This document shows, one piece after another, positions 631 through 14,886 of a DNA stretch of 64,000 bases. Within the stretch, counting starts at the first letter, position 1. Each line of letters begins with the position of its first letter. The position numbers and the translations under genes are program-made. The notes beneath the pieces are model-generated. The model was not told the origin of the DNA. It did no database searches and saw nothing but the letters and a program-made list of their open reading frames with translations. This DNA is from an uncultured Gammaproteobacteria bacterium (GTDB lineage Bacteria > Pseudomonadota > Gammaproteobacteria > SZUA-229): positions 65,782-129,781 of the forward strand of contig CAVRHW010000031.1 in assembly GCA_963721085.1 (NCBI GenBank), in the 5' to 3' direction.

Positions 631-1071
631 ATGTCCGAGTATCGCCATATTGCCTGCCCAAAATGCGCCGCCAAAAACCGCGTGCCCGTTGCCAGACTGG
701 GCGCTGGCGGTAACTGCGGAAAATGCGGCACGCCTTTATTCAACCAGCACCCGATCGAGCTGACCACCGCCAATTTTGACCGCATGATCAATAACCATGA
801 CATTCCGGTGCTGGTGGATTTCTGGGCGCCCTGGTGCGGGCCGTGCAAAATGATGGCGCCCGCTTTTGAACAGGCCGCGCAAAAACTGGAACCTCAATTG
901 CGGCTGGCAAAGCTGAATACTGAAAATGAACAGGCGATTGCAGCGCGTTTTAATATTCGCAGCATTCCTACGCTGGCAATCTTTAAGAACGGGCGCATCA
1001 TCGCCCAGCAGGCGGGAGCGATGAATCTTGATGGTCTGTTATCCTGGGCACGCGCAAACGTTTCGCGCTAA
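631..1071 (+). CDS. trxC: thioredoxin 2 (TrxC type, with N-terminal zinc-finger extension)
   Basis: 146 aa. N-terminal CPKC...CGKC cysteine pairs are followed by a thioredoxin fold with the WCGPC active site. Confidence 0.9.
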   Translation: MSEYRHIACPKCAAKNRVPVARLGAGGNCGKCGTPLFNQHPIELTTANFDRMINNHDIPVLVDFWAPWCGPCKMMAPAFEQAAQKLEPQLRLAKLNTENEQAIAARFNIRSIPTLAIFKNGRIIAQQAGAMNLDGLLSWARANVSR

Positions 1072-2396
1072 CTCGCTGACAGAGTATCACGCATCGTGCG
1101 CAGCGCATCTCTGAAACGTTTCGGATCGAAGCGGTCTTCGTTGTCCAGCGTCCGGTAAAGCTCCTTGATTTCTTTTTTAATGCTGGCCTTGCGCGGATTG
1201 CTGAATGGCGCCATTTTGTCCCATGACACGGTCAGCGCACTGATCGCCATCGCAGCCTGTTCGGCAGCGACATAATTTCTGTACTCGCCCCAGACACCTT
1301 CATTCAGCAAACTCAGTGATATTTTCTGAATATCGTTTGCGCTGAACTTGTGTGGCATTATCTTCTCCTTGATCTCTTTTACCAGCGTCTGCATTTCACT
1401 CACTTTTTCATCCAGGGCCGCGTAACCCTCAGTCGAAGCAATATGCATTTCCTTGATCATGGTTTTAAGCTTCCATGCCAGCGCCGCATCGACTGGCACC
1501 GCAACGTTTCGCAGCATCAGCAAACTCGAATCATTAATGGTCACTACCCCCGGGCCAAGGCCGGTGCCGCGTCTTGGCGCCCAGGTTTTTTTCGACATGG
1601 AATGATGACAGCTCTGGCAATCGAACAGACTCAGTTCCGGGAACAGCTTGCCTGTTTGCATGCGATCACTTTTCAGCATTTTTAGCATTGCCTCGGCAGC
1701 GACCACCTGCCCAACCGCCCAGACCTTGACGTGGCTATACGCGATCTTGCGTTCACTATAATCCTTGTCCTGGACAAAATGTGGCGGCTGCAGTGCGCTG
1801 TAGGTATCCATCTCAAAGCTGATACGCGGATGGCCTGCGCCCATAATGTCATGACTGACAAACTGGTGCTTGTTGCCATAATGACATGACAGGCACACCC
1901 GGGTGCGCAGCACGATGTTGTCATTCGGATACAGGCCCTTCGCCACGTTATCTTTATGTGTGGCTTTTTTACTGGTGTGTGTTTTTAACCATTTCTCAGA
2001 ACCGCCGTGACATGCCTCACAACCGATACCGTCTTCTATGTGAAACTTTTTACCGCGAAATTTTTCGGCCACGTAGCTGGCATGGCAGACCAGGCAGGCA
2101 GGTTCTTTATAAGCCGGTTTCATCCCCAGTTTTGTCGTGATGTCAGTAAACTGTTTACCGAACATTTTTTTATACGACTGGCTGTGCGGATCTTTTCTTT
2201 CCCAGGTAATGTATTCGTTGTGCAAAATGTTCGAGTGCTGATAAGCCAGAACAGAACCATGGCAATTACTGCCCGCGCAGGTGGACACGCCTTCGTGCAC
2301 ATATCCGTCCTGCAGCGGCAATGGCGGCTCGCCTGCTGCGTGGCTTATTGTGCTGGTGAGCAGTAAAGCAAAACTGATGCATAGCTTATTTAGCAT
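1068..2396 (-). CDS. multihaem c-type cytochrome (4 CXXCH + 1 CX4CH) with helical C-terminal domain
   Basis: 442 aa. Signal peptide MLNKLCISFALLLTSTISHA. Haem motifs CAGSNCH, CLVCH, CEACH, CLSCH, CQSCH. The C-terminal ~170 aa are K/E-rich and helical, with no haem motif. The ATG overlaps the upstream stop by 11 nt. Confidence 0.85.
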   Translation of the reverse strand: MLNKLCISFALLLTSTISHAAGEPPLPLQDGYVHEGVSTCAGSNCHGSVLAYQHSNILHNEYITWERKDPHSQSYKKMFGKQFTDITTKLGMKPAYKEPACLVCHASYVAEKFRGKKFHIEDGIGCEACHGGSEKWLKTHTSKKATHKDNVAKGLYPNDNIVLRTRVCLSCHYGNKHQFVSHDIMGAGHPRISFEMDTYSALQPPHFVQDKDYSERKIAYSHVKVWAVGQVVAAEAMLKMLKSDRMQTGKLFPELSLFDCQSCHHSMSKKTWAPRRGTGLGPGVVTINDSSLLMLRNVAVPVDAALAWKLKTMIKEMHIASTEGYAALDEKVSEMQTLVKEIKEKIMPHKFSANDIQKISLSLLNEGVWGEYRNYVAAEQAAMAISALTVSWDKMAPFSNPRKASIKKEIKELYRTLDNEDRFDPKRFRDALRTMRDTLSAS

Positions 2397-7950: not shown

Positions 7951-9868
7951 GGCAAACATCTGTTTCGGTTGAATCCAGGAACGGTGACTGCGGGCACTGC
8001 ACAAACCGCAGGTGTATACCCATTGGCGCAAGATTATCGGCGCGCATCGCTGCCGGTGCATTATTGATGGTGCCCAGTATTGCACTGGCATTGTTCAGGC
8101 CAAGAAATGAAACCATGTCATCCTGATCGACGCCATCGCCGGAAACACCAATGCCGCCGACCAGAATATTGCCACGATAAATCGGCACGCTACCTGGAAA
8201 CACCTGCATGCCATTGGCAAGTCGGCTCAGCGTGGTACAGTTTTGCGGCGCATCCGGGCCGCCACCTTTGACATAAACCACGTGCTGAATAACGCGGTTC
8301 ATCACCAGGTCAAGCTGCATACCGTCGGAAAACGGGCTCCATTCGCTGATCGGTTTGCTAAACGGGCCGTTGACCGAACCAACCGTGCCGTCCGGAAAAA
8401 ACGGGCGCGACAGATTGCCGCCGGAACGGTCGGCAAAGGCATATGCACCATCGGCCAGTGCGGTCGGTGCGCCGAGAAAATTTCGCACCGCAGACACATA
8501 ATCAGCAATGCTGATCTGGATGCCGCTCGGGCTCGCATCCGGATTTCTATAAATCGTGTTCGGTACCGCGCTCAGTTCAGCCGCGCCGTGGGTGCCGGAA
8601 AAAAAAGTTGCGGTGCGCGCTTTCTGCAGAGACACGTCGGTACCGAACACCGGGCCATCACGCGTGCGCGCAATACCCAGTATTTTGCCATTGGTATCAA
8701 CCACCGACACGGTGACGCGCGCCTGGCTGCCCAGCGGCCGGCGAATTTGTGAACGCGCGCGATTTGCGACTGCCAGCGCACTGCTGATCAGCTGTTTCAC
8801 TTCGCTGGCAGACAATGCATTCGCGCCATCACTGCCCGCAGTCGGCGGGAAGCGATTCACATTGCTGTTATCGACCAGCACAAAAGCATCCAGCCCGGGA
8901 TAATCAACCGGGTCTGCGCGTATCCCCGAATCGGGCTGACCAAAGGCCTTGCCATCGATCACTGCGCCTGCGGTATAACCGGTCACTGCCTGCAGACTGC
9001 CTGCACTGCCATCGATGCTGGCAAAACTGGGCGCATTGCCCGGCGTTGTCGCCAGGTCAGAAAAATCGACGTCAGAGAACCGCGCCACCTTGCCGTCCAG
9101 TGTAATCTTTTCTCTGCGATCAACCGGCGCGGCAAAACCATAACTGCCGGCGACTGCAATCAGTTCATCGATATTGCGATCGCGATCGTTGGTATTCAGA
9201 TCCAGTCCATAGACACCATCCGCAATCACACCAATACCACCGACCAGCGCGCCGTTTTTATATAAAGGCAGACCACCGGGGTCGGCGGACAAACCCAGCG
9301 GCGTGCGATGCGGTCCGGCATCTGCACCTGCGCTAAAGCGCGTATTCAGATCCGAACAGGGTAAATTACTGAACTGCACGCCGAACAAAGGGCCGCCCGG
9401 CTGGCCGGTTTCACCTGGATTAAAATGTTCCTGCACGATCTGGCTGGCGGTTCGCGTACTAAAGGCATTGCCTTCGGATGACAGATAGGCACCTGTCATC
9501 GCTTTTGAAATCGCGGCCAGGGTATCCGGGATCACATTGATGCCTTCCAGACCACCGCTGACATTGCGTCCCGAATCAATGGTGATATCGGTCGATGCCG
9601 AATTCATTCTGAATACCGCGAGCACGTTGCCCACGCGATCGACAACCGCAATGGTCCCCGCAACGCCCTGCGCCTGCGCTTCTGTCACCGCCTGAGCAAT
9701 AATGGTTTCGGTTTCGGCAACACTGAGAAAACTGCTGGCATTGGTGCAGCTACCGTTGCACTCTACTGCTCCCGCGCCGGTACCTGCTGTCGAATCACCA
9801 TTGCCACTGCTGCAGGAGAGCAGAACACTCAGCACACCAAAACAACCGGCTTTGAGAATGCTATTCAT
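7940..9868 (-). CDS. lipoprotein with two GlcG/HbpS-like (DUF336, haem-binding/degrading family) domains
   Basis: Frame of ORF 7940..9883. ATG at 9868 gives MNSILKAGCFGVLSVLLSC-SS (lipobox LLSC). There are two copies of the DUF336 signature: PLYKNGALVGGIGVIADG, and PIYRGNILVGGIGVSGDGVDQDDMVS preceded by VVDRVGNVLAVFRM / VVDTNGKILGIARTRDG. The start overlaps the upstream stop by 8 nt. Confidence 0.7.
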   Translation of the reverse strand: MNSILKAGCFGVLSVLLSCSSGNGDSTAGTGAGAVECNGSCTNASSFLSVAETETIIAQAVTEAQAQGVAGTIAVVDRVGNVLAVFRMNSASTDITIDSGRNVSGGLEGINVIPDTLAAISKAMTGAYLSSEGNAFSTRTASQIVQEHFNPGETGQPGGPLFGVQFSNLPCSDLNTRFSAGADAGPHRTPLGLSADPGGLPLYKNGALVGGIGVIADGVYGLDLNTNDRDRNIDELIAVAGSYGFAAPVDRREKITLDGKVARFSDVDFSDLATTPGNAPSFASIDGSAGSLQAVTGYTAGAVIDGKAFGQPDSGIRADPVDYPGLDAFVLVDNSNVNRFPPTAGSDGANALSASEVKQLISSALAVANRARSQIRRPLGSQARVTVSVVDTNGKILGIARTRDGPVFGTDVSLQKARTATFFSGTHGAAELSAVPNTIYRNPDASPSGIQISIADYVSAVRNFLGAPTALADGAYAFADRSGGNLSRPFFPDGTVGSVNGPFSKPISEWSPFSDGMQLDLVMNRVIQHVVYVKGGGPDAPQNCTTLSRLANGMQVFPGSVPIYRGNILVGGIGVSGDGVDQDDMVSFLGLNNASAILGTINNAPAAMRADNLAPMGIHLRFVQCPQSPFLDSTETDVCHGK

Positions 9869-11561
9869 TGTTCGTACGCACATCGCTGTTGCCCATCAGC
9901 AAAGTGTCGGGCTCATGAAATTTATGACAGGTAATACAGGTCGATGCCAGCTTGTCGCTACTATGCGCACCGCCGTGGCAGTCGCGACAGACCTTGATTC
10001 CTGGCAACAACACATCTTCACTGCTCTTTGACTCTTTCGCCTTATGGCAGTCTTCGCATTTTGAATTGCGATGCGCGCGATGATCAAATTCACCCTTGCT
10101 GAACCAGCGCTGCGAAATATGCACCTTTGGAATTCGCCAGCCATATTCTGCAGTCGGGTCACGCATCACCTTGTGGCACAGATTGCAGCTACGAAACTCG
10201 ATCACTTCTTCTTTAACATCGGCGGCCTTGTCTTTTGCCCAGGCCATCGCGGTTTTCATTTCTTTCGGTGTTAATGTTTTTCCCGGAATGCGTCTTTTCC
10301 TGACGATGTCGGGCGCCGGGAAATCGGTGTCCTGATAATTTCCCCTCAGCGCCATGAATGCGTAAAACTCATTTAACATCGAGGTCATGGTGCCCAGGTC
10401 GGCGTGAGGCAATTGTCGATCGGGAGCGTTCTGATCAAAGTCCAGGCGATGACATTCCTGACAGTGCACTTCCATCTGGATGGGCAGCATATAATTGCCA
10501 CTGGCATCGGTTTGATGACAGCTGCTGCAATTGAGCACCCGGTTTCCTGTCGGACTATCCACACCATTTACATCGAGATGCACCTTGTGTGAAAAAATCA
10601 GCCCGGTTTCCTGTTTAAGCCCGGGTGTATCCAGACTGACACGGTGCCACACCGGTTTACCGATACCCGGGTCGATATCAGTTAGCAGACGCGGCCGGAA
10701 CTCGACATGATGTTTTCCAAAATCTTCAATATCAGCCAGTTTTGTTTCTGTTAGCTTGCTCAAATGCTCATGACAGTTGCTGCATAAAGCCTGATCCTGT
10801 CTTACCAGAAATGCTGTGCCCTTGTGTTCCTGATGACAGTCGGTACAGCTGGCATGTGTTAATTGCCTGATATTGAATATCTCGGGGTCCGCATGTACCG
10901 TGACATCTTTATGGCATGCGAGACAGGCCGCGTTTTTTACTTTTTGAAATGGTTTTACATGGCAGGCATTGCAGTTACTGGCGAAATGTTTGTGCTGCGA
11001 ACTGATTTCACCACTCAGCCAGAGACCGTCATCAGGTGCAACCGGTATTTTGTGCAACAGCTTGCCTGTGTCCTGATTAAAAAATCCGGCCATAGGGACA
11101 ATAAGGCATAATAGCAATATCAGCACGAAGCCAGTCCAGGCAGCACGACGCCGACTTAACCAGGTGTCTTCCAGCTTTCTTGCCGTCTGGTGCTCACTCT
11201 GAACATCAACAATGTCGTCGTATACCTGCTCGACGGTAATGTCGATATCAATGGGTGCAGCGCCAGGTTCGACCGTAATCCTGTAAGGACCCACCTGTAT
11301 TTCGCCGCGCCCTTTGAACGAACCGCTTTGCGAAAAACGGCCGTTAACATGAAGCCCGGCCTTGCTCAGCGAAGTAACACCAACCTGGCCATTTCCCGCA
11401 ACGGTGAGCTGCGCGTGCTGGTAAGCCACACCCAGATCGGAAAGAAAAATGTCCTGGTCGGTCGCACGGCCGATACTGATGACCGCTTTATTGAGCACCT
11501 GTTCATTCTGAACAATTGTGCCTTTGCGTTTATGAACAATATGACGAATACGTGTTTGCAT
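9861..11561 (-). CDS. FHA-domain, single-pass membrane-anchored decahaem c-type cytochrome
   Basis: 566 aa. The N-terminal ~100 aa are FHA-like (ISIGRATDQDIFLSDLGVAYQHAQL...LHVNGR). A positive-inside TM follows (SRRRAAWTGFVLILLLCLIVPMAGFF). Then ten CXXCH motifs: CNACH, CLACH, CTDCH, CSNCH, CSSCH, CQECH, CNLCH, CEDCH, CRDCH, CITCH. Confidence 0.85.
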   Translation of the reverse strand: MQTRIRHIVHKRKGTIVQNEQVLNKAVISIGRATDQDIFLSDLGVAYQHAQLTVAGNGQVGVTSLSKAGLHVNGRFSQSGSFKGRGEIQVGPYRITVEPGAAPIDIDITVEQVYDDIVDVQSEHQTARKLEDTWLSRRRAAWTGFVLILLLCLIVPMAGFFNQDTGKLLHKIPVAPDDGLWLSGEISSQHKHFASNCNACHVKPFQKVKNAACLACHKDVTVHADPEIFNIRQLTHASCTDCHQEHKGTAFLVRQDQALCSNCHEHLSKLTETKLADIEDFGKHHVEFRPRLLTDIDPGIGKPVWHRVSLDTPGLKQETGLIFSHKVHLDVNGVDSPTGNRVLNCSSCHQTDASGNYMLPIQMEVHCQECHRLDFDQNAPDRQLPHADLGTMTSMLNEFYAFMALRGNYQDTDFPAPDIVRKRRIPGKTLTPKEMKTAMAWAKDKAADVKEEVIEFRSCNLCHKVMRDPTAEYGWRIPKVHISQRWFSKGEFDHRAHRNSKCEDCHKAKESKSSEDVLLPGIKVCRDCHGGAHSSDKLASTCITCHKFHEPDTLLMGNSDVRTNNE

Positions 11562-11575
11562 GCTCTATTCGCCAG

Positions 11576-12472
11576 CTACCAGTAGAAAAATACGGAAATA
11601 ATATGCGCAATCAATGCCGCAAGCAGCGCAAATGACAGGGGCACATGAATGTACAGCCAGAGATCAAGATAGGCTTTATACTGCATATCACGACGTAGCT
11701 GCTCAACCAGGCGCTCTTTCTGGCCAATCAATAAATCAGTGAGCTGCAACATCGTCGCGCCGGTGTCGTCACTTTCTTTTGCAATACGGCTCGCCATAAA
11801 CGCCATGGTGCTATCAAGATCGCGTTTCTCCATTTTTTCCTGCTGATATTTTGCTTCCTGCACCAGCCCCTGCAGATCATCCGATTTTTTGCTGCCAAAC
11901 ACGATGTCAAAAACACTGCCGCCGAGACGCGTGCGCTGAATACTTTTCAACACGCGTTCGTGGGTTTCGGGATTAATTTCGCTGGCCAGCACAAGTGCCT
12001 GTCGGTCGATGTCCTGTATCTGGCGAATTAAAGAGTCGGGTGAAGATTCGCCACGGTTGTCGGTCATCAATGTCGGAAAATGCAGGTAACAATAAACGCC
12101 GTAAATGCCACTGAAAATAACCAGCATCATCAGCACGTAGGCCAGGGTGTGAACATTCCAGCCAAACTGGAACCCGGTGTGCAAGGTCGCGAGCACGATC
12201 AGCGCCAGCCCGAGATACACATGCGCCGACAACCAGCCCGCAGCGGTGCCCATGCTGGAGCGATAGCGACGTTTGCGTATACCGAACCACATCAACCAGA
12301 CAATCAATAACGCCGATATCGTGCCCAGGGTGTAACCCAGCCAGGTGCCGCCATTCGGCGGCATGGTGGGATTATCCAGCGCATAGGCCAGAATAGCGCC
12401 TGTGCACAGCGCCACGCTCCACCAGAGATAGCGCGAGCCACGGTAACTGAGGATTGTCTGGTGCATCGCCAT
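11576..12472 (-). CDS. integral membrane protein with two His-x13-His helices (candidate dihaem b-type transmembrane electron carrier)
   Basis: Frame of ORF 11576..12589. ATG at 12472 lies 2 nt after the upstream stop. I read about five hydrophobic helices. One is SAHVYLGLALIVLATLHTGF and another is YIHVPLSFALLAALIAHIISVFFYW, each with His at i and i+14. A ~120-aa polar loop lies between helices 4 and 5. Confidence 0.7.
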   Translation of the reverse strand: MAMHQTILSYRGSRYLWWSVALCTGAILAYALDNPTMPPNGGTWLGYTLGTISALLIVWLMWFGIRKRRYRSSMGTAAGWLSAHVYLGLALIVLATLHTGFQFGWNVHTLAYVLMMLVIFSGIYGVYCYLHFPTLMTDNRGESSPDSLIRQIQDIDRQALVLASEINPETHERVLKSIQRTRLGGSVFDIVFGSKKSDDLQGLVQEAKYQQEKMEKRDLDSTMAFMASRIAKESDDTGATMLQLTDLLIGQKERLVEQLRRDMQYKAYLDLWLYIHVPLSFALLAALIAHIISVFFYW

Positions 12473-12474
12473 GT

Positions 12475-14886
12475 TTATGAGCGCCCTGCGTAGTTCGCCA
12501 GCTGATCCGGCTTGATGCGTATCGCGGCACCGGTCGGGCAGGCGCGCACACAGGCCGCACCACCGCTGAGGTCTTTGCACATATCGCACTTCACTGCTTT
12601 TTTCACCGCCTCGCTATCTTTTTTGCCATAGCCTTTGGGCGCCTGGCCGGGGCCGGGGCCAATACCGAACAACAACCATGGGATCAGGCCCGGTTTTTTC
12701 GGTGGCTTTGTCGCCATCTGGATCACACCGTAGGGACAGTTGCGCTGACAGTTACCGCATCCGATACAGTTATCGGCAACATACACTTCGCCGTCGGGCG
12801 CACGCTTGATCGCATCGGGAGGACAATCCTTCATGCAGTGCGGATGCTCGCAATGACGACATGAAGTCGGCACATGAATCGCCGCATAGGTGGGGCCGGC
12901 TTCACGATCCAGCCGCGAGGTTCCATCGTGCGTTTCCGCGCAGGCTTTTTCACAATTGTCGCAACGAATGCACAGGGACTCATCGATCAATAATACATCG
13001 GTGGCTTCGCCAACCCCCTGGCTGACCAGGAAGGAAATAATGCTGTTGCCACCCTGCTGCTGCATGCGCAGATTATTTGAAACACGCTGCTTGTATTCTT
13101 TTTCGATGTTGCGCCTGAGCGCCTCATCCTGTTCGAGCAGATAACGAAACTCATCCGCGCCCAGTTCGATGGTTTCGGTCGCCGTGGCTGCGCGCACGGT
13201 TGCCGTACGGCGGCTTTTACCCATGATGCCCATTTCACCAACATAGTTGCCCGCGGGCAGATACGACATCACCACTTCGTGTTCGCCAAGACGGCGCGAA
13301 ATTGTTACCGATCCTCGCCGGATCACATGAAAGCTTTCTGCTTCATCGCCTTCATTAAACAATACTTCACCAGCGCGATATGACTGCAGTTTTGCCTTTT
13401 TGGCAATTGTTGCCAGGCTCTGAATCGGTGTGGTATTGGCAAATCGCGTCTGCAGGGTGCGCACAATAAACGCTTCGTCAATCGTGCGCTTCACCGACTC
13501 GACAGAGCTGATCAATTTATTCATCGAGCGCCGAGGCGTTTCGATCAACACACATTTTTTGCCTGCGCGTATGGTTGCCGAGCGACGACGACCAGACAAT
13601 AAACTCATTTCACCGAAAAACTGGCCCGGGGTTAACGCAATTGTTTTGTCAGGATCGTTCTCATCGATTTCAATCAGCACTTCACCGCTGATAATGCAGA
13701 AAAATGTATTGGTGTAATCATTTTTACGAAAAATATAATCGCCCGGGGAAGCAACATATATTTCACTGTCGAGAAAAAACTCACGTAACTGCAGAACCGT
13801 GAGGCCAGAAAGCAACGGCACTATCTTTCTGATTGAGCGTAATGCCTGGTTTACTGCGGGCTTGCCGGGTATTTTTTCAAACCGCGCCTTAAGCAAAGGC
13901 TCGTCTGCGGGCTCGACCGGATTGCCCTCAATGTATTCGACAACTTCGTATCCCTGGTTCATACATTGCTTGATCAGGGGGTAGCCGCCCAGCGCACCAA
14001 TAATATAAATGCCGGGCACATTGCTTTCGTATTGATCGGACAACTCGGGCACTGCACCGATATCTGCATTCGGAAAACGAATGCCGCAGGATTCAATGAA
14101 CTTGCGCGGCGGAATCGCGCCAAGACGTGCGATGATGCGATCGAAAGGCACTTCCGCTTCGCCTTCGGGTGTTTCCAGCACCAGTACGGCTTTTTGCGCG
14201 GCACCTTCGGGGCTCTGTTCGATGCGTACCGAATTGGCCTGATAAAAACATTCGATCACGCCTTTTTCGATCTTGTCGAGTATCGCGGCATTGTTCGCTT
14301 CCTTGGCGCGGGTGAACTCGGGCTGGCGATTCACTATATATACCGTATTGTGGCCACATAGCGCGAGCGCGTTTTCGATACCGGCATCGCCGCCGCCAAT
14401 GACAACAATATGTTCATCTTCGTATTCGTCAGGATCGTCCAGGGTGTATTGCACCAGTGGCGCTGCTTCCCCGGGAATACACAGCATACGTGGATTTCCC
14501 TGCACCCCCACGGCCAGAACGATATGCTCGGCGCGGATGGTTTCACCCTGTTTCAGGCTGATTTCGAATCCACCCTTGCTGCCACTGATCGCCGAAACTT
14601 CAGCATTGCATTTGAGATTGACCCGATGCGTGTCGATTCCGTGTTGCCAGGTATCCAGGACTTCTTCTCGTTTGGCGGCGGTGAACTTGATCGGACTGCG
14701 CAGCGGCAGCACACGCGGTTCGTCCATCACGTGCTTGCCTTTCTGGTAGTGGAATATGGTGTTACAGATATGAGGTTCAGCTTCGAGCAATATATGGTTA
14801 ATGCCCAGTTCTGCGGCACGTGAAGCCGCGCTCAGGCCACCGGGGCCCGAACCGATGATGGCGATTCGATAGTTGTTACCACCCAT
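12475..14886 (-). CDS. fusion protein: FAD/NAD(P)-binding pyridine-nucleotide-disulfide-oxidoreductase-like domain + two cyclic-nucleotide-binding domains + four-cluster [4Fe-4S] ferredoxin domain
   Basis: 803 aa.
- N-terminus: IAIIGSGPGGLSAA (dinucleotide fold) and a second GGGDAGIENA.
- Two cNMP signatures: FGEMSLLSGRRRSATIRA and VGEMGIMGKSRRTATVRA.
- C-terminal cluster motifs: CIRCDNCEKAC, CRHCEHPHCMKDCP, CIGCGNCQRNCP, CDMCKD...CVRACP.
- No signal peptide or TM. Confidence 0.85.
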   Translation of the reverse strand: MGGNNYRIAIIGSGPGGLSAASRAAELGINHILLEAEPHICNTIFHYQKGKHVMDEPRVLPLRSPIKFTAAKREEVLDTWQHGIDTHRVNLKCNAEVSAISGSKGGFEISLKQGETIRAEHIVLAVGVQGNPRMLCIPGEAAPLVQYTLDDPDEYEDEHIVVIGGGDAGIENALALCGHNTVYIVNRQPEFTRAKEANNAAILDKIEKGVIECFYQANSVRIEQSPEGAAQKAVLVLETPEGEAEVPFDRIIARLGAIPPRKFIESCGIRFPNADIGAVPELSDQYESNVPGIYIIGALGGYPLIKQCMNQGYEVVEYIEGNPVEPADEPLLKARFEKIPGKPAVNQALRSIRKIVPLLSGLTVLQLREFFLDSEIYVASPGDYIFRKNDYTNTFFCIISGEVLIEIDENDPDKTIALTPGQFFGEMSLLSGRRRSATIRAGKKCVLIETPRRSMNKLISSVESVKRTIDEAFIVRTLQTRFANTTPIQSLATIAKKAKLQSYRAGEVLFNEGDEAESFHVIRRGSVTISRRLGEHEVVMSYLPAGNYVGEMGIMGKSRRTATVRAATATETIELGADEFRYLLEQDEALRRNIEKEYKQRVSNNLRMQQQGGNSIISFLVSQGVGEATDVLLIDESLCIRCDNCEKACAETHDGTSRLDREAGPTYAAIHVPTSCRHCEHPHCMKDCPPDAIKRAPDGEVYVADNCIGCGNCQRNCPYGVIQMATKPPKKPGLIPWLLFGIGPGPGQAPKGYGKKDSEAVKKAVKCDMCKDLSGGAACVRACPTGAAIRIKPDQLANYAGRS

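Follow-up and report, generated by a model that had tools for sequence, protein, structure and literature searches.

How are electrons carried across the inner membrane when an operon encodes a flavin- and iron-sulfur (FeS)-containing protein for the cytoplasmic side and an anchored decahaem cytochrome for the periplasmic side? This question is raised by the window analyzed here, a stretch of 64,000 nucleotides (nt) from an uncultured gammaproteobacterium of the SZUA-229 lineage (contig CAVRHW010000031.1, positions 65,782 to 129,781). Between the two genes, at 11576..12472 on the minus strand, lies a third (TAG stop codon at 11576-11578), whose translation is a 298-amino-acid (aa) protein that we refer to as the inner-membrane protein (IMP) and that has full-length homologues of 51-97% identity. 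The second ATG (M3, at 12466) may be the true start, because the MHQS that it would begin with is the start of most homologues. We conclude that the IMP is very probably a five-helix, dihaem b-type cytochrome with two bound b haems; this interpretation, which a preliminary description of the DNA had offered as a possibility, is well supported by the invariance of the predicted ligands and by the predicted topology.

Two predicted transmembrane (TM) helices each carry histidines at i and i+14, as that description had noted: SAHVYLGLALIVLATLH (residues 82-98), in which H84 is encoded at 12221-12223 and H98 at 12179-12181, and YIHVPLSFALLAALIAH (residues 274-290), in which H276 is encoded at 11645-11647 and H290 at 11603-11605. 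Both motifs sit within strongly hydrophobic segments and belong to a W-x3-H-x13-H pattern that occurs twice, on TM3 (W80/H84/H98) and on TM5 (W272/H276/H290); TM4 carries the motif SGxxG (S121-G122-x-x-G125).

Conservation was followed in 124 cluster representatives (255-360 aa, 33-63% identity) and in an alignment and profile, A3, of 56 full-length representatives with a mean column identity of 34%. All of the 124 sequences kept H84 and H98, together with G88, G122 and R68, and the second pair was nearly as constant (H276 in 116 and H290 in 117, with five gaps at each position). W272 was kept in 117 sequences, W80 in 116, H108 and G125 in 123 each, and N106 in 121. Only 14 columns of A3 were invariant (L49, G50, R68, W80, H84, G88, H98, N106, H108, G122, P133, H276, P278 and H290); five of them are histidines, all four predicted ligands included, which exceeds what would be expected by chance. 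Relatives ranging from 192 to 380 aa have the four buried histidines at i/i+14 and the conserved glycines on the flanking helices as invariant features, and neither set of representatives has a conserved histidine on TM1 or TM2.

Five TM helices are predicted in all, at residues 16-32, 44-65, 77-99, 107-130 and 265-298; the preliminary description had named only the two that bear the motifs. Hydrophobicity analysis gave four hydrophobic windows plus TM1, and the AlphaFold2 (AF2) model has helices at residues 14-32, 44-66, 77-99, 107-130 and 236-297. TM1 (12377..12427; all features of the IMP are on the minus strand) would run outward from the cytoplasm. TM2 (12278..12343) contains a conserved G46-Y47-x-L49-G50 and is followed by an invariant cytoplasmic R66-K67-R68, and TM3 (12176..12244) contains W80-x3-H84-x3-G88-x9-H98. 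A short periplasmic loop (12149..12181; H98-x-G-F-Q-F-G-W-N106-x-H108) leads into TM4 (12083..12154), the small SGxxG residues of which are expected to pack against haem. Between TM4 and TM5 lies a long polar loop (11681..12082, residues 131-264) that is mostly helical. TM5 (11579..11680; W272-x3-H276-x-P278-x11-H290) prolongs a long cytoplasmic helix, and the protein ends at the periplasmic face.

The mean number of lysines and arginines over the 56 sequences was 2.3 in the N-terminus and 4.2 in loop 2, whereas loops 1 and 3 averaged 0.5 and 0.1, respectively. Because of these positive-inside counts, and because in some genomes the cytoplasmic flavo-FeS protein and the IMP share a single reading frame (see below), the IMP is predicted to have its N-terminus inside, its long loop in the cytoplasm and its C-terminus at the periplasmic face. 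Of the four histidines, H84 and H276 would therefore be close to the cytoplasm and H98 and H290 close to the periplasm, and the two parallel helices that bear them would be separated by one helix; this arrangement fits two inter-helix, bis-histidine haems. An inner haem would be ligated by H84 of TM3 and H276 of TM5, and an outer haem, about 21 Å away, by H98 and H290; the conserved glycines of TM2 and TM4 would make room for the porphyrins.

The long loop had been put at about 120 aa and suggested as a docking surface. Such a loop is present and is predicted to be cytoplasmic; however, it measures about 134 aa, and its predicted location means that it could receive the FeS protein or an FHA domain, but not a periplasmic haem domain. 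Variable in sequence, it is 111 to 151 aa long among the 56 sequences and is reduced to about 30 aa in the 192-aa relatives; a Pfam scan of the loop gave no known-domain match.

The most conserved stretch of the IMP is the periplasmic TM3-TM4 loop (residues 98-108), which always has 7-8 residues in the 56 sequences and is replaced by H-A-G-V-H in the 192-aa relatives. It contains H108, the fifth invariant histidine, and N106, neither of which is a predicted haem ligand. These two residues may contact a haem propionate, form a docking or electron-exit site, or belong to a quinol site on the periplasmic side.

The family is large. At least 7,994 clusters at 90% identity match it, nearly all named "hypothetical", and at 50% identity there are 2,190 representatives at E≤1e-3 and 243 at E≤1e-30. 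Among 401 Pseudomonadota genomes drawn evenly, a profile search detected the family in 34 (about 8%), which represent 25 of 212 genera. Its carriers include iron oxidizers (Gallionellaceae) and aerobic heterotrophs (Tahibacter, Dokdonella and Rheinheimera).

The dihaem interpretation is not new. The "conserved IMP" of He, Barco, Emerson and Roden (2017; PMC5566968) is about 300 aa long, has five TM helices and bears WX3HX13H on both TM3 and TM5 and SGXXG on TM4; those authors hypothesized from sequence, by analogy with FRD and cytochrome b, that it binds two b haems, and they favored coupling to quinones. They placed it in PCC3, in PCC4 and in the clusters of their Table S6, which combine a multihaem cytochrome, an IMP with two HX13H motifs and a redox protein. 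In Gallionella these are 544-556 aa, 308-310 aa and 796-805 aa, respectively, and the trio of Gallionella capsiferriformans ES-2 consists of a 544-aa cytochrome with nine haems, a 308-aa IMP and a 796-aa redox protein. The 298-aa IMP of the window matches their protein in size range (192-310 aa), in its five TM helices, in both motifs and in SGXXG, and its neighbors are the same, the redox protein being about 800 aa long and the multihaem cytochrome about 550 aa. Our result is thus a correct rediscovery of a published prediction, and later papers on the Gallionellaceae still treat the role of the IMP as a prediction. To that prediction we add quantified invariance, a topology, fusions between the flavo-FeS protein and the IMP, and a borderline link to PF01292. 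We also add kinship, at the profile level, of the trio, PCC4-like, PCC3-like and 192-aa forms, and the observation that many loci, but not all, have a partner of the NAD(P)H type. He et al. found the IMPs of PCC3 and PCC4 to have no significant overall homology, whereas the A3 profile detects trio, PCC3-type and PCC4-type loci alike, the latter two types at E values of about 1e-15 to 1e-22. An hhalign comparison of A3 with A4, the 192-aa form, gave 97.7% probability and an E value of 1.4e-12, with H84, H98 and SGxxG aligned.

The only curated family to which the IMP shows detectable similarity is PF01292, the prokaryotic cytochrome b561 family (FdnI, HyaC and CybB). It is matched at E<0.01 by 30 of the 56 representatives, and four close homologues (P0042, P0060, P0067 and P0075) pass its cutoff with 31.3-33.1 bits, the matching region being residues ~16-125. 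Protein and model are collinear: this region corresponds to positions 17-123 of the model and residues 256-297, the best-matching stretch of the window IMP, to positions 132-165. Weaker matches among the 56 representatives, at E<=0.01, were to DUF4405 (six sequences) and Ferric_reduct (PF01794; two sequences). The IMP family thus appears to be a divergent, borderline relative of the PF01292 dihaem cytochromes b, from which it differs by one more helix, a large insert and ligands arranged 2+2. An NCBIfam scan of the window IMP gave no match, and the family has no domain-database entry.

Several results weigh against the assignment to the dihaem cytochromes. The window IMP itself scores 22.7 bits against PF01292 (E value of 9.6e-5), below the cutoff of 30.1 bits. 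A search of the PDB sequences with the family profile gave no match, only a chance hit (E value of 1.2), and hhalign of A3 against CybB, YodB and MsrQ of E. coli, each as a single sequence, gave probabilities below 1% (0.4% for MsrQ); with templates of that kind, the latter is a weak test. For the IMP, AF2 gave a model of moderate quality, with a mean predicted local distance difference test (pLDDT) score of 66.8, values of 73-87 in the TM helices and values below 50 in the loop. When the PDB and BFVD were searched with this model in Foldseek, the only hits were long-helix proteins at E>0.2; BFVD was of little use. A 192-aa relative, P0270, was therefore modeled, because the long loop is thereby removed; its AF2 model was better (pLDDT of 78.8, predicted template modeling score [pTM] of 0.71), and Foldseek again gave nothing significant (all E≥0.25, template modeling scores [TM-scores] of 0.2-0.3). 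Among these nonsignificant hits, the NOX5 TM domain ranked first (E value of 0.25, TM-score of 0.20), human NOX5 fourth, and cytochrome b6 fifth and ninth. The literature on the family yielded no experimental evidence of haem for any member. Finally, the invariant N106 and H108 at the periplasmic face lack an explanation and could mark a quinol site.

Some of these results would also be expected if the IMP were a nonredox scaffold that joins the TM anchor of the decahaem protein to the cytoplasmic FeS protein, or if its histidines bound some other cofactor or a metal. A role of this kind was proposed by Becker et al. (bioRxiv 10.64898/2026.01.22.701106), who described an unnamed 5-TM protein beside 'NHC', an FHA-nonahaem protein, in Ferrigenium straubiae. 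They found no redox motif in it with InterPro, suggested that it is a binding platform, and reported that the trio was transcribed under all four conditions tested. The gene set is the same as that of the window trio, and the histidine motif was overlooked. The window IMP falls under every Pfam cutoff, and the fold searches gave no significant match, as a scaffold might. However, a scaffold has no need for four buried, invariant histidines spaced exactly i/i+14 on parallel helices, with conserved glycines on the flanking helices; relatives of the IMP pass the cytochrome b561 model; and without a redox centre in the membrane, there would be no path for electrons from the cytoplasmic FeS clusters to the periplasmic haems. 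The invariance pattern is hard to reconcile with a pure scaffold, and we consider this explanation, in either form, very unlikely compared with a dihaem cytochrome.

If the IMP is a dihaem cytochrome, what would it connect? As the preliminary description had it, the gene is flanked by genes for a cytoplasmic FeS protein and a periplasm-facing decahaem protein. The upstream gene (12475..14886, minus strand) encodes an 803-aa flavo-FeS protein with Pyr_redox_3/2, two cyclic nucleoside monophosphate (cNMP)-binding and multi-[4Fe-4S] domains and with no hydrophobic segment; its stop codon lies 2 nt before the ATG of the IMP gene. The downstream gene (9861..11561, minus strand) starts 14 nt past the TAG; its 566-aa product combines an FHA domain on the cytoplasmic side, a single TM helix (residues 138-165) and ten CxxCH motifs on the periplasmic side. 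We propose the former as the electron donor at the cytoplasmic face and the latter as the acceptor at the periplasmic face. T222 in the long loop was considered as a phospho-target of the FHA domain and rejected: it is invariant among close relatives only and is Ala, Leu or Val in most of the distant ones.

This arrangement recurs. In 80 close loci from named genomes, with IMPs 47-82% identical (including Tahibacter, Dokdonella, Rudaea, Rheinheimera and many gammaproteobacterial metagenome-assembled genomes [MAGs]), the recurring order is flavo-FeS protein, IMP, FHA-decahaem, HbpS-like lipoprotein, outer-membrane protein and LVIVD-decahaem. The FHA-decahaem gene is present in 78 of these loci, the other two of which stop directly after the IMP gene, and the flavo-FeS gene is present in 72, four of the eight exceptions having no upstream sequence.

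A more diverse set of 20 loci, comprising profile hits from the 401-genome sample with ±8 kb of flank, gave a similar picture. Both Wx3Hx13H motifs were present in all 20, a multihaem cytochrome gene lay directly downstream of the IMP gene in all 20, and an FeS or flavo-FeS gene lay upstream of it, or was fused to it, in 17. Three types could be distinguished. In type A, that of the window (12 loci, including three fusions), a flavo-FeS gene (~810-950 aa) is followed by the IMP and FHA-decahaem genes. Type B (five loci) fits the description of PCC4 and ptdDEFG: a 3-4-haem cytochrome, an FeS protein of 566-607 aa, the IMP and a decahaem protein with a Cys-rich N-terminal domain. Type C (three loci) fits that of PCC3, the IMP being followed by 24-haem and 27-46-haem cytochromes.

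The fusions join the flavo-FeS protein in frame to the N-terminus of the IMP. One is a library protein (P0235, 1110 aa), and three genomes of a single genus have stop-free frames of 1118-1135 aa (L125 5547-8954, L126 3052-6423 and L127 5574-8930). In these flavo/cNMP/FeS::IMP proteins (1110-1135 aa), TM2 and TM3 are separated by a long insert, and the FHA cytochrome encoded downstream of them has 8-9 CxxCH sites rather than 10.

On these grounds, we postulate that the three proteins probably form a complete wire from NAD(P)H to the decahaem protein through a dihaem IMP. The flavo-FeS protein would dock on the cytoplasmic side of the IMP, at the RKR loop, the long loop or both, and would oxidize NAD(P)H, passing single electrons from FAD through the [4Fe-4S] clusters to the inner haem (H84/H276). 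The electrons would then cross from haem to haem, reach the outer haem (H98/H290), and be handed to the anchored decahaem c, which would pass them on to the rest of the seven-gene envelope conduit. The three proteins would in effect be a split NOX/MsrQ-like electron exporter. We favor the outward direction because export would be assisted by the membrane potential, while inward flow to NAD(P)+ from donors at the Fe(II) level would be doubly uphill; an inward Fe(II)-to-NAD(P)+ route was accordingly set aside, on energetic reasoning only.

What counts against a dedicated NAD(P)H wire is that the IMP gene has no flavo-FeS gene beside it in a Rhodanobacteraceae subclade of four loci (L027, L034, L041 and L050) or in PCC3-type loci such as L131 and L134, and the NAD(P)H link is for this reason described as frequent but not universal. 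The four subclade loci, from Rhodanobacteraceae/Lysobacterales MAGs, retain the IMP, FHA-decahaem and HbpS-like genes, with unrelated genes upstream of the IMP gene (a TetR-like regulator and a MiaB/RimO-like gene). The PCC3-type loci L131 and L134 and the subclade loci all keep an IMP and a multihaem cytochrome, as they would if the IMP were a dihaem b cytochrome partnered mainly with the quinone pool, as in the model of He et al. (PMC5566968). It would then act as a quinone reductase or quinol oxidase that joins the periplasmic multihaem cytochromes to the respiratory chain, in the manner of FdnI, HyaC and NarI, with the flavo-FeS protein as an accessory or alternative input. This model has the merit of being published already; the sole family that the IMP resembles, PF01292, is one of quinone-reactive cytochromes b; N106 and H108, both invariant, would adjoin the outer haem; and MsrQ has been found with bound ubiquinone (PMC12525009). 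However, the adjacency of the flavo-FeS gene in 72 of the 80 close loci, and its fusion to the IMP gene in one genus, speak for a cytoplasmic FeS protein as the donor or acceptor of the inner haem, and no quinone-site motif is identifiable in the IMP. Furthermore, we infer that inward transfer from donors at the Fe(II) level through two stacked haems would be opposed by the membrane potential. We therefore regard the quinone pool as an unlikely main partner and prefer the NAD(P)H wire.

A stronger version of the NAD(P)H wire is tentative, and we would put it at somewhat less than an even chance: that the trio is a self-contained, quinone-independent NAD(P)H:multihaem-cytochrome oxidoreductase, and that the five-helix dihaem module is a common entry point for such systems. 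Export by the trio could then be under cyclic-nucleotide control, and a single module, in its 192-aa, PCC3, PCC4/Ptd and trio forms, could be the inner-membrane entry of many uncharacterized porin-cytochrome systems.

Porin-cytochrome conduits are usually thought to be joined to the respiratory chain through quinol-reactive proteins of the NapC/NirT or CbcL type. The IMP family would be a different, very common inner-membrane module for these conduits, and one that may connect them directly to NAD(P)H. The dihaem prediction of 2017 has stood for nine years, and a preprint of 2026 still missed the redox motif of the family.

Other parts of the window and of the same genome bear on how these systems are related. 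The last gene of the operon (1068-2396, minus strand) encodes a 442-aa protein with one CX4CH and four CXXCH motifs, the phmmer relatives of which (E values of 5e-11 to 9e-7) are the 3-4-haem cytochromes encoded just upstream of the FeS gene in PCC4/ptd-type loci. Because of this relationship, the operon of the window can be said to mix the trio and PCC4 layouts. A second, PCC3-like locus is present in the genome of the window (contig C35, L083 4635-9738), with a Fer4 + Pyr_redox_3 gene divergent from a gene for an IMP paralogue that has Wx3Hx13H and SGxxG; the latter is followed by a gene for a 21-haem cytochrome and then by more multihaem open reading frames. This locus is a further case of an IMP gene paired with a gene for an FeS flavoprotein, and it speaks in favor of the proposed wire. 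Frameshifts are needed to read the flavoprotein, the IMP paralogue and apparently the next cytochrome of this locus, while none are needed in the 13.8-kb operon of the window; they could reflect gene decay or a local assembly error.

In PCC4/ptd-type loci, the decahaem protein encoded after the IMP has, in place of FHA and ahead of its single TM helix, a cytoplasmic N-terminal domain of ~85 aa that contains about 10 Cys (YxRPxxxWxCG...; L128 6369-8498, L129 5509-8067, L130 8705-11098, L132 5673-7985 and L135 8701-10959). This Cys-rich domain may bind a metal or cluster and appears not to have been described before.

Set beside known systems, the window is closest to the trios of He et al. (PMC5566968). 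Those in Table S6 are listed without a porin, whereas the window trio is followed by genes for a lipoprotein, an outer-membrane barrel and a decahaem-propeller protein. In the ptdABCDEFG cluster (bioRxiv 10.1101/2023.11.21.568154), PtdF has been called "ferric reductase-like"; the cluster fits the description of PCC4, and PtdF, judged by its description, is a probable relative of the window IMP. Both PtdF and the F. straubiae protein, like the window IMP, have a cNMP/4Fe-4S protein on one side and a deca- or nonahaem protein with a membrane anchor on the other. Unlike the window, where they are one protein, ptd-type loci encode the flavin and cNMP/FeS parts separately, and the decahaem protein of the presumed ptd/PCC4-type loci (among L128-L135) carries the Cys-rich cytoplasmic domain where that of the window has FHA.

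PF01292 proteins such as FdnI have four TM helices, with haem ligands on TM1, on TM2 and, twice, on TM4 (1+1+2). The IMP differs from these proteins in having five TM helices, two predicted ligands each on TM3 and TM5 (2+2), and an insert of ~134 aa. Its predicted ligand-helix geometry is instead that of NOX (TM3 and TM5) and of cytochrome b of the bc1 and b6f complexes (helices B and D), in which two histidine pairs lie on parallel helices with one helix between, and the preliminary comparison of the His-x13-His spacing with helices B and D holds good. The IMP also shares with NOX a predicted cytoplasmic N-terminus and the placing of two histidine pairs, spaced x13 (x12 in NOX), on TM3 and TM5, although it gave no significant sequence or fold match to the ferric reductase superfamily.

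In the NOX/FRE/STEAP/MsrQ superfamily, as proposed here for the IMP, a cytoplasmic NAD(P)H flavoprotein supplies the electrons that cross the membrane. The donor would differ, being an FeS wire for the IMP rather than a flavin directly, as would the acceptor, a multihaem cytochrome c rather than O2, Fe(III) or MsrP. MsrQ, which is fed by a cytosolic NADH oxidoreductase, provides a precedent for a split, two-component system, although it has one haem and FMN (PMC12525009) instead of the two b haems predicted for the IMP. The trio could thus be viewed as a split, FeS-wired bacterial counterpart of NADPH oxidase that would send reducing power from the cytoplasm straight into a haem conduit across the envelope.

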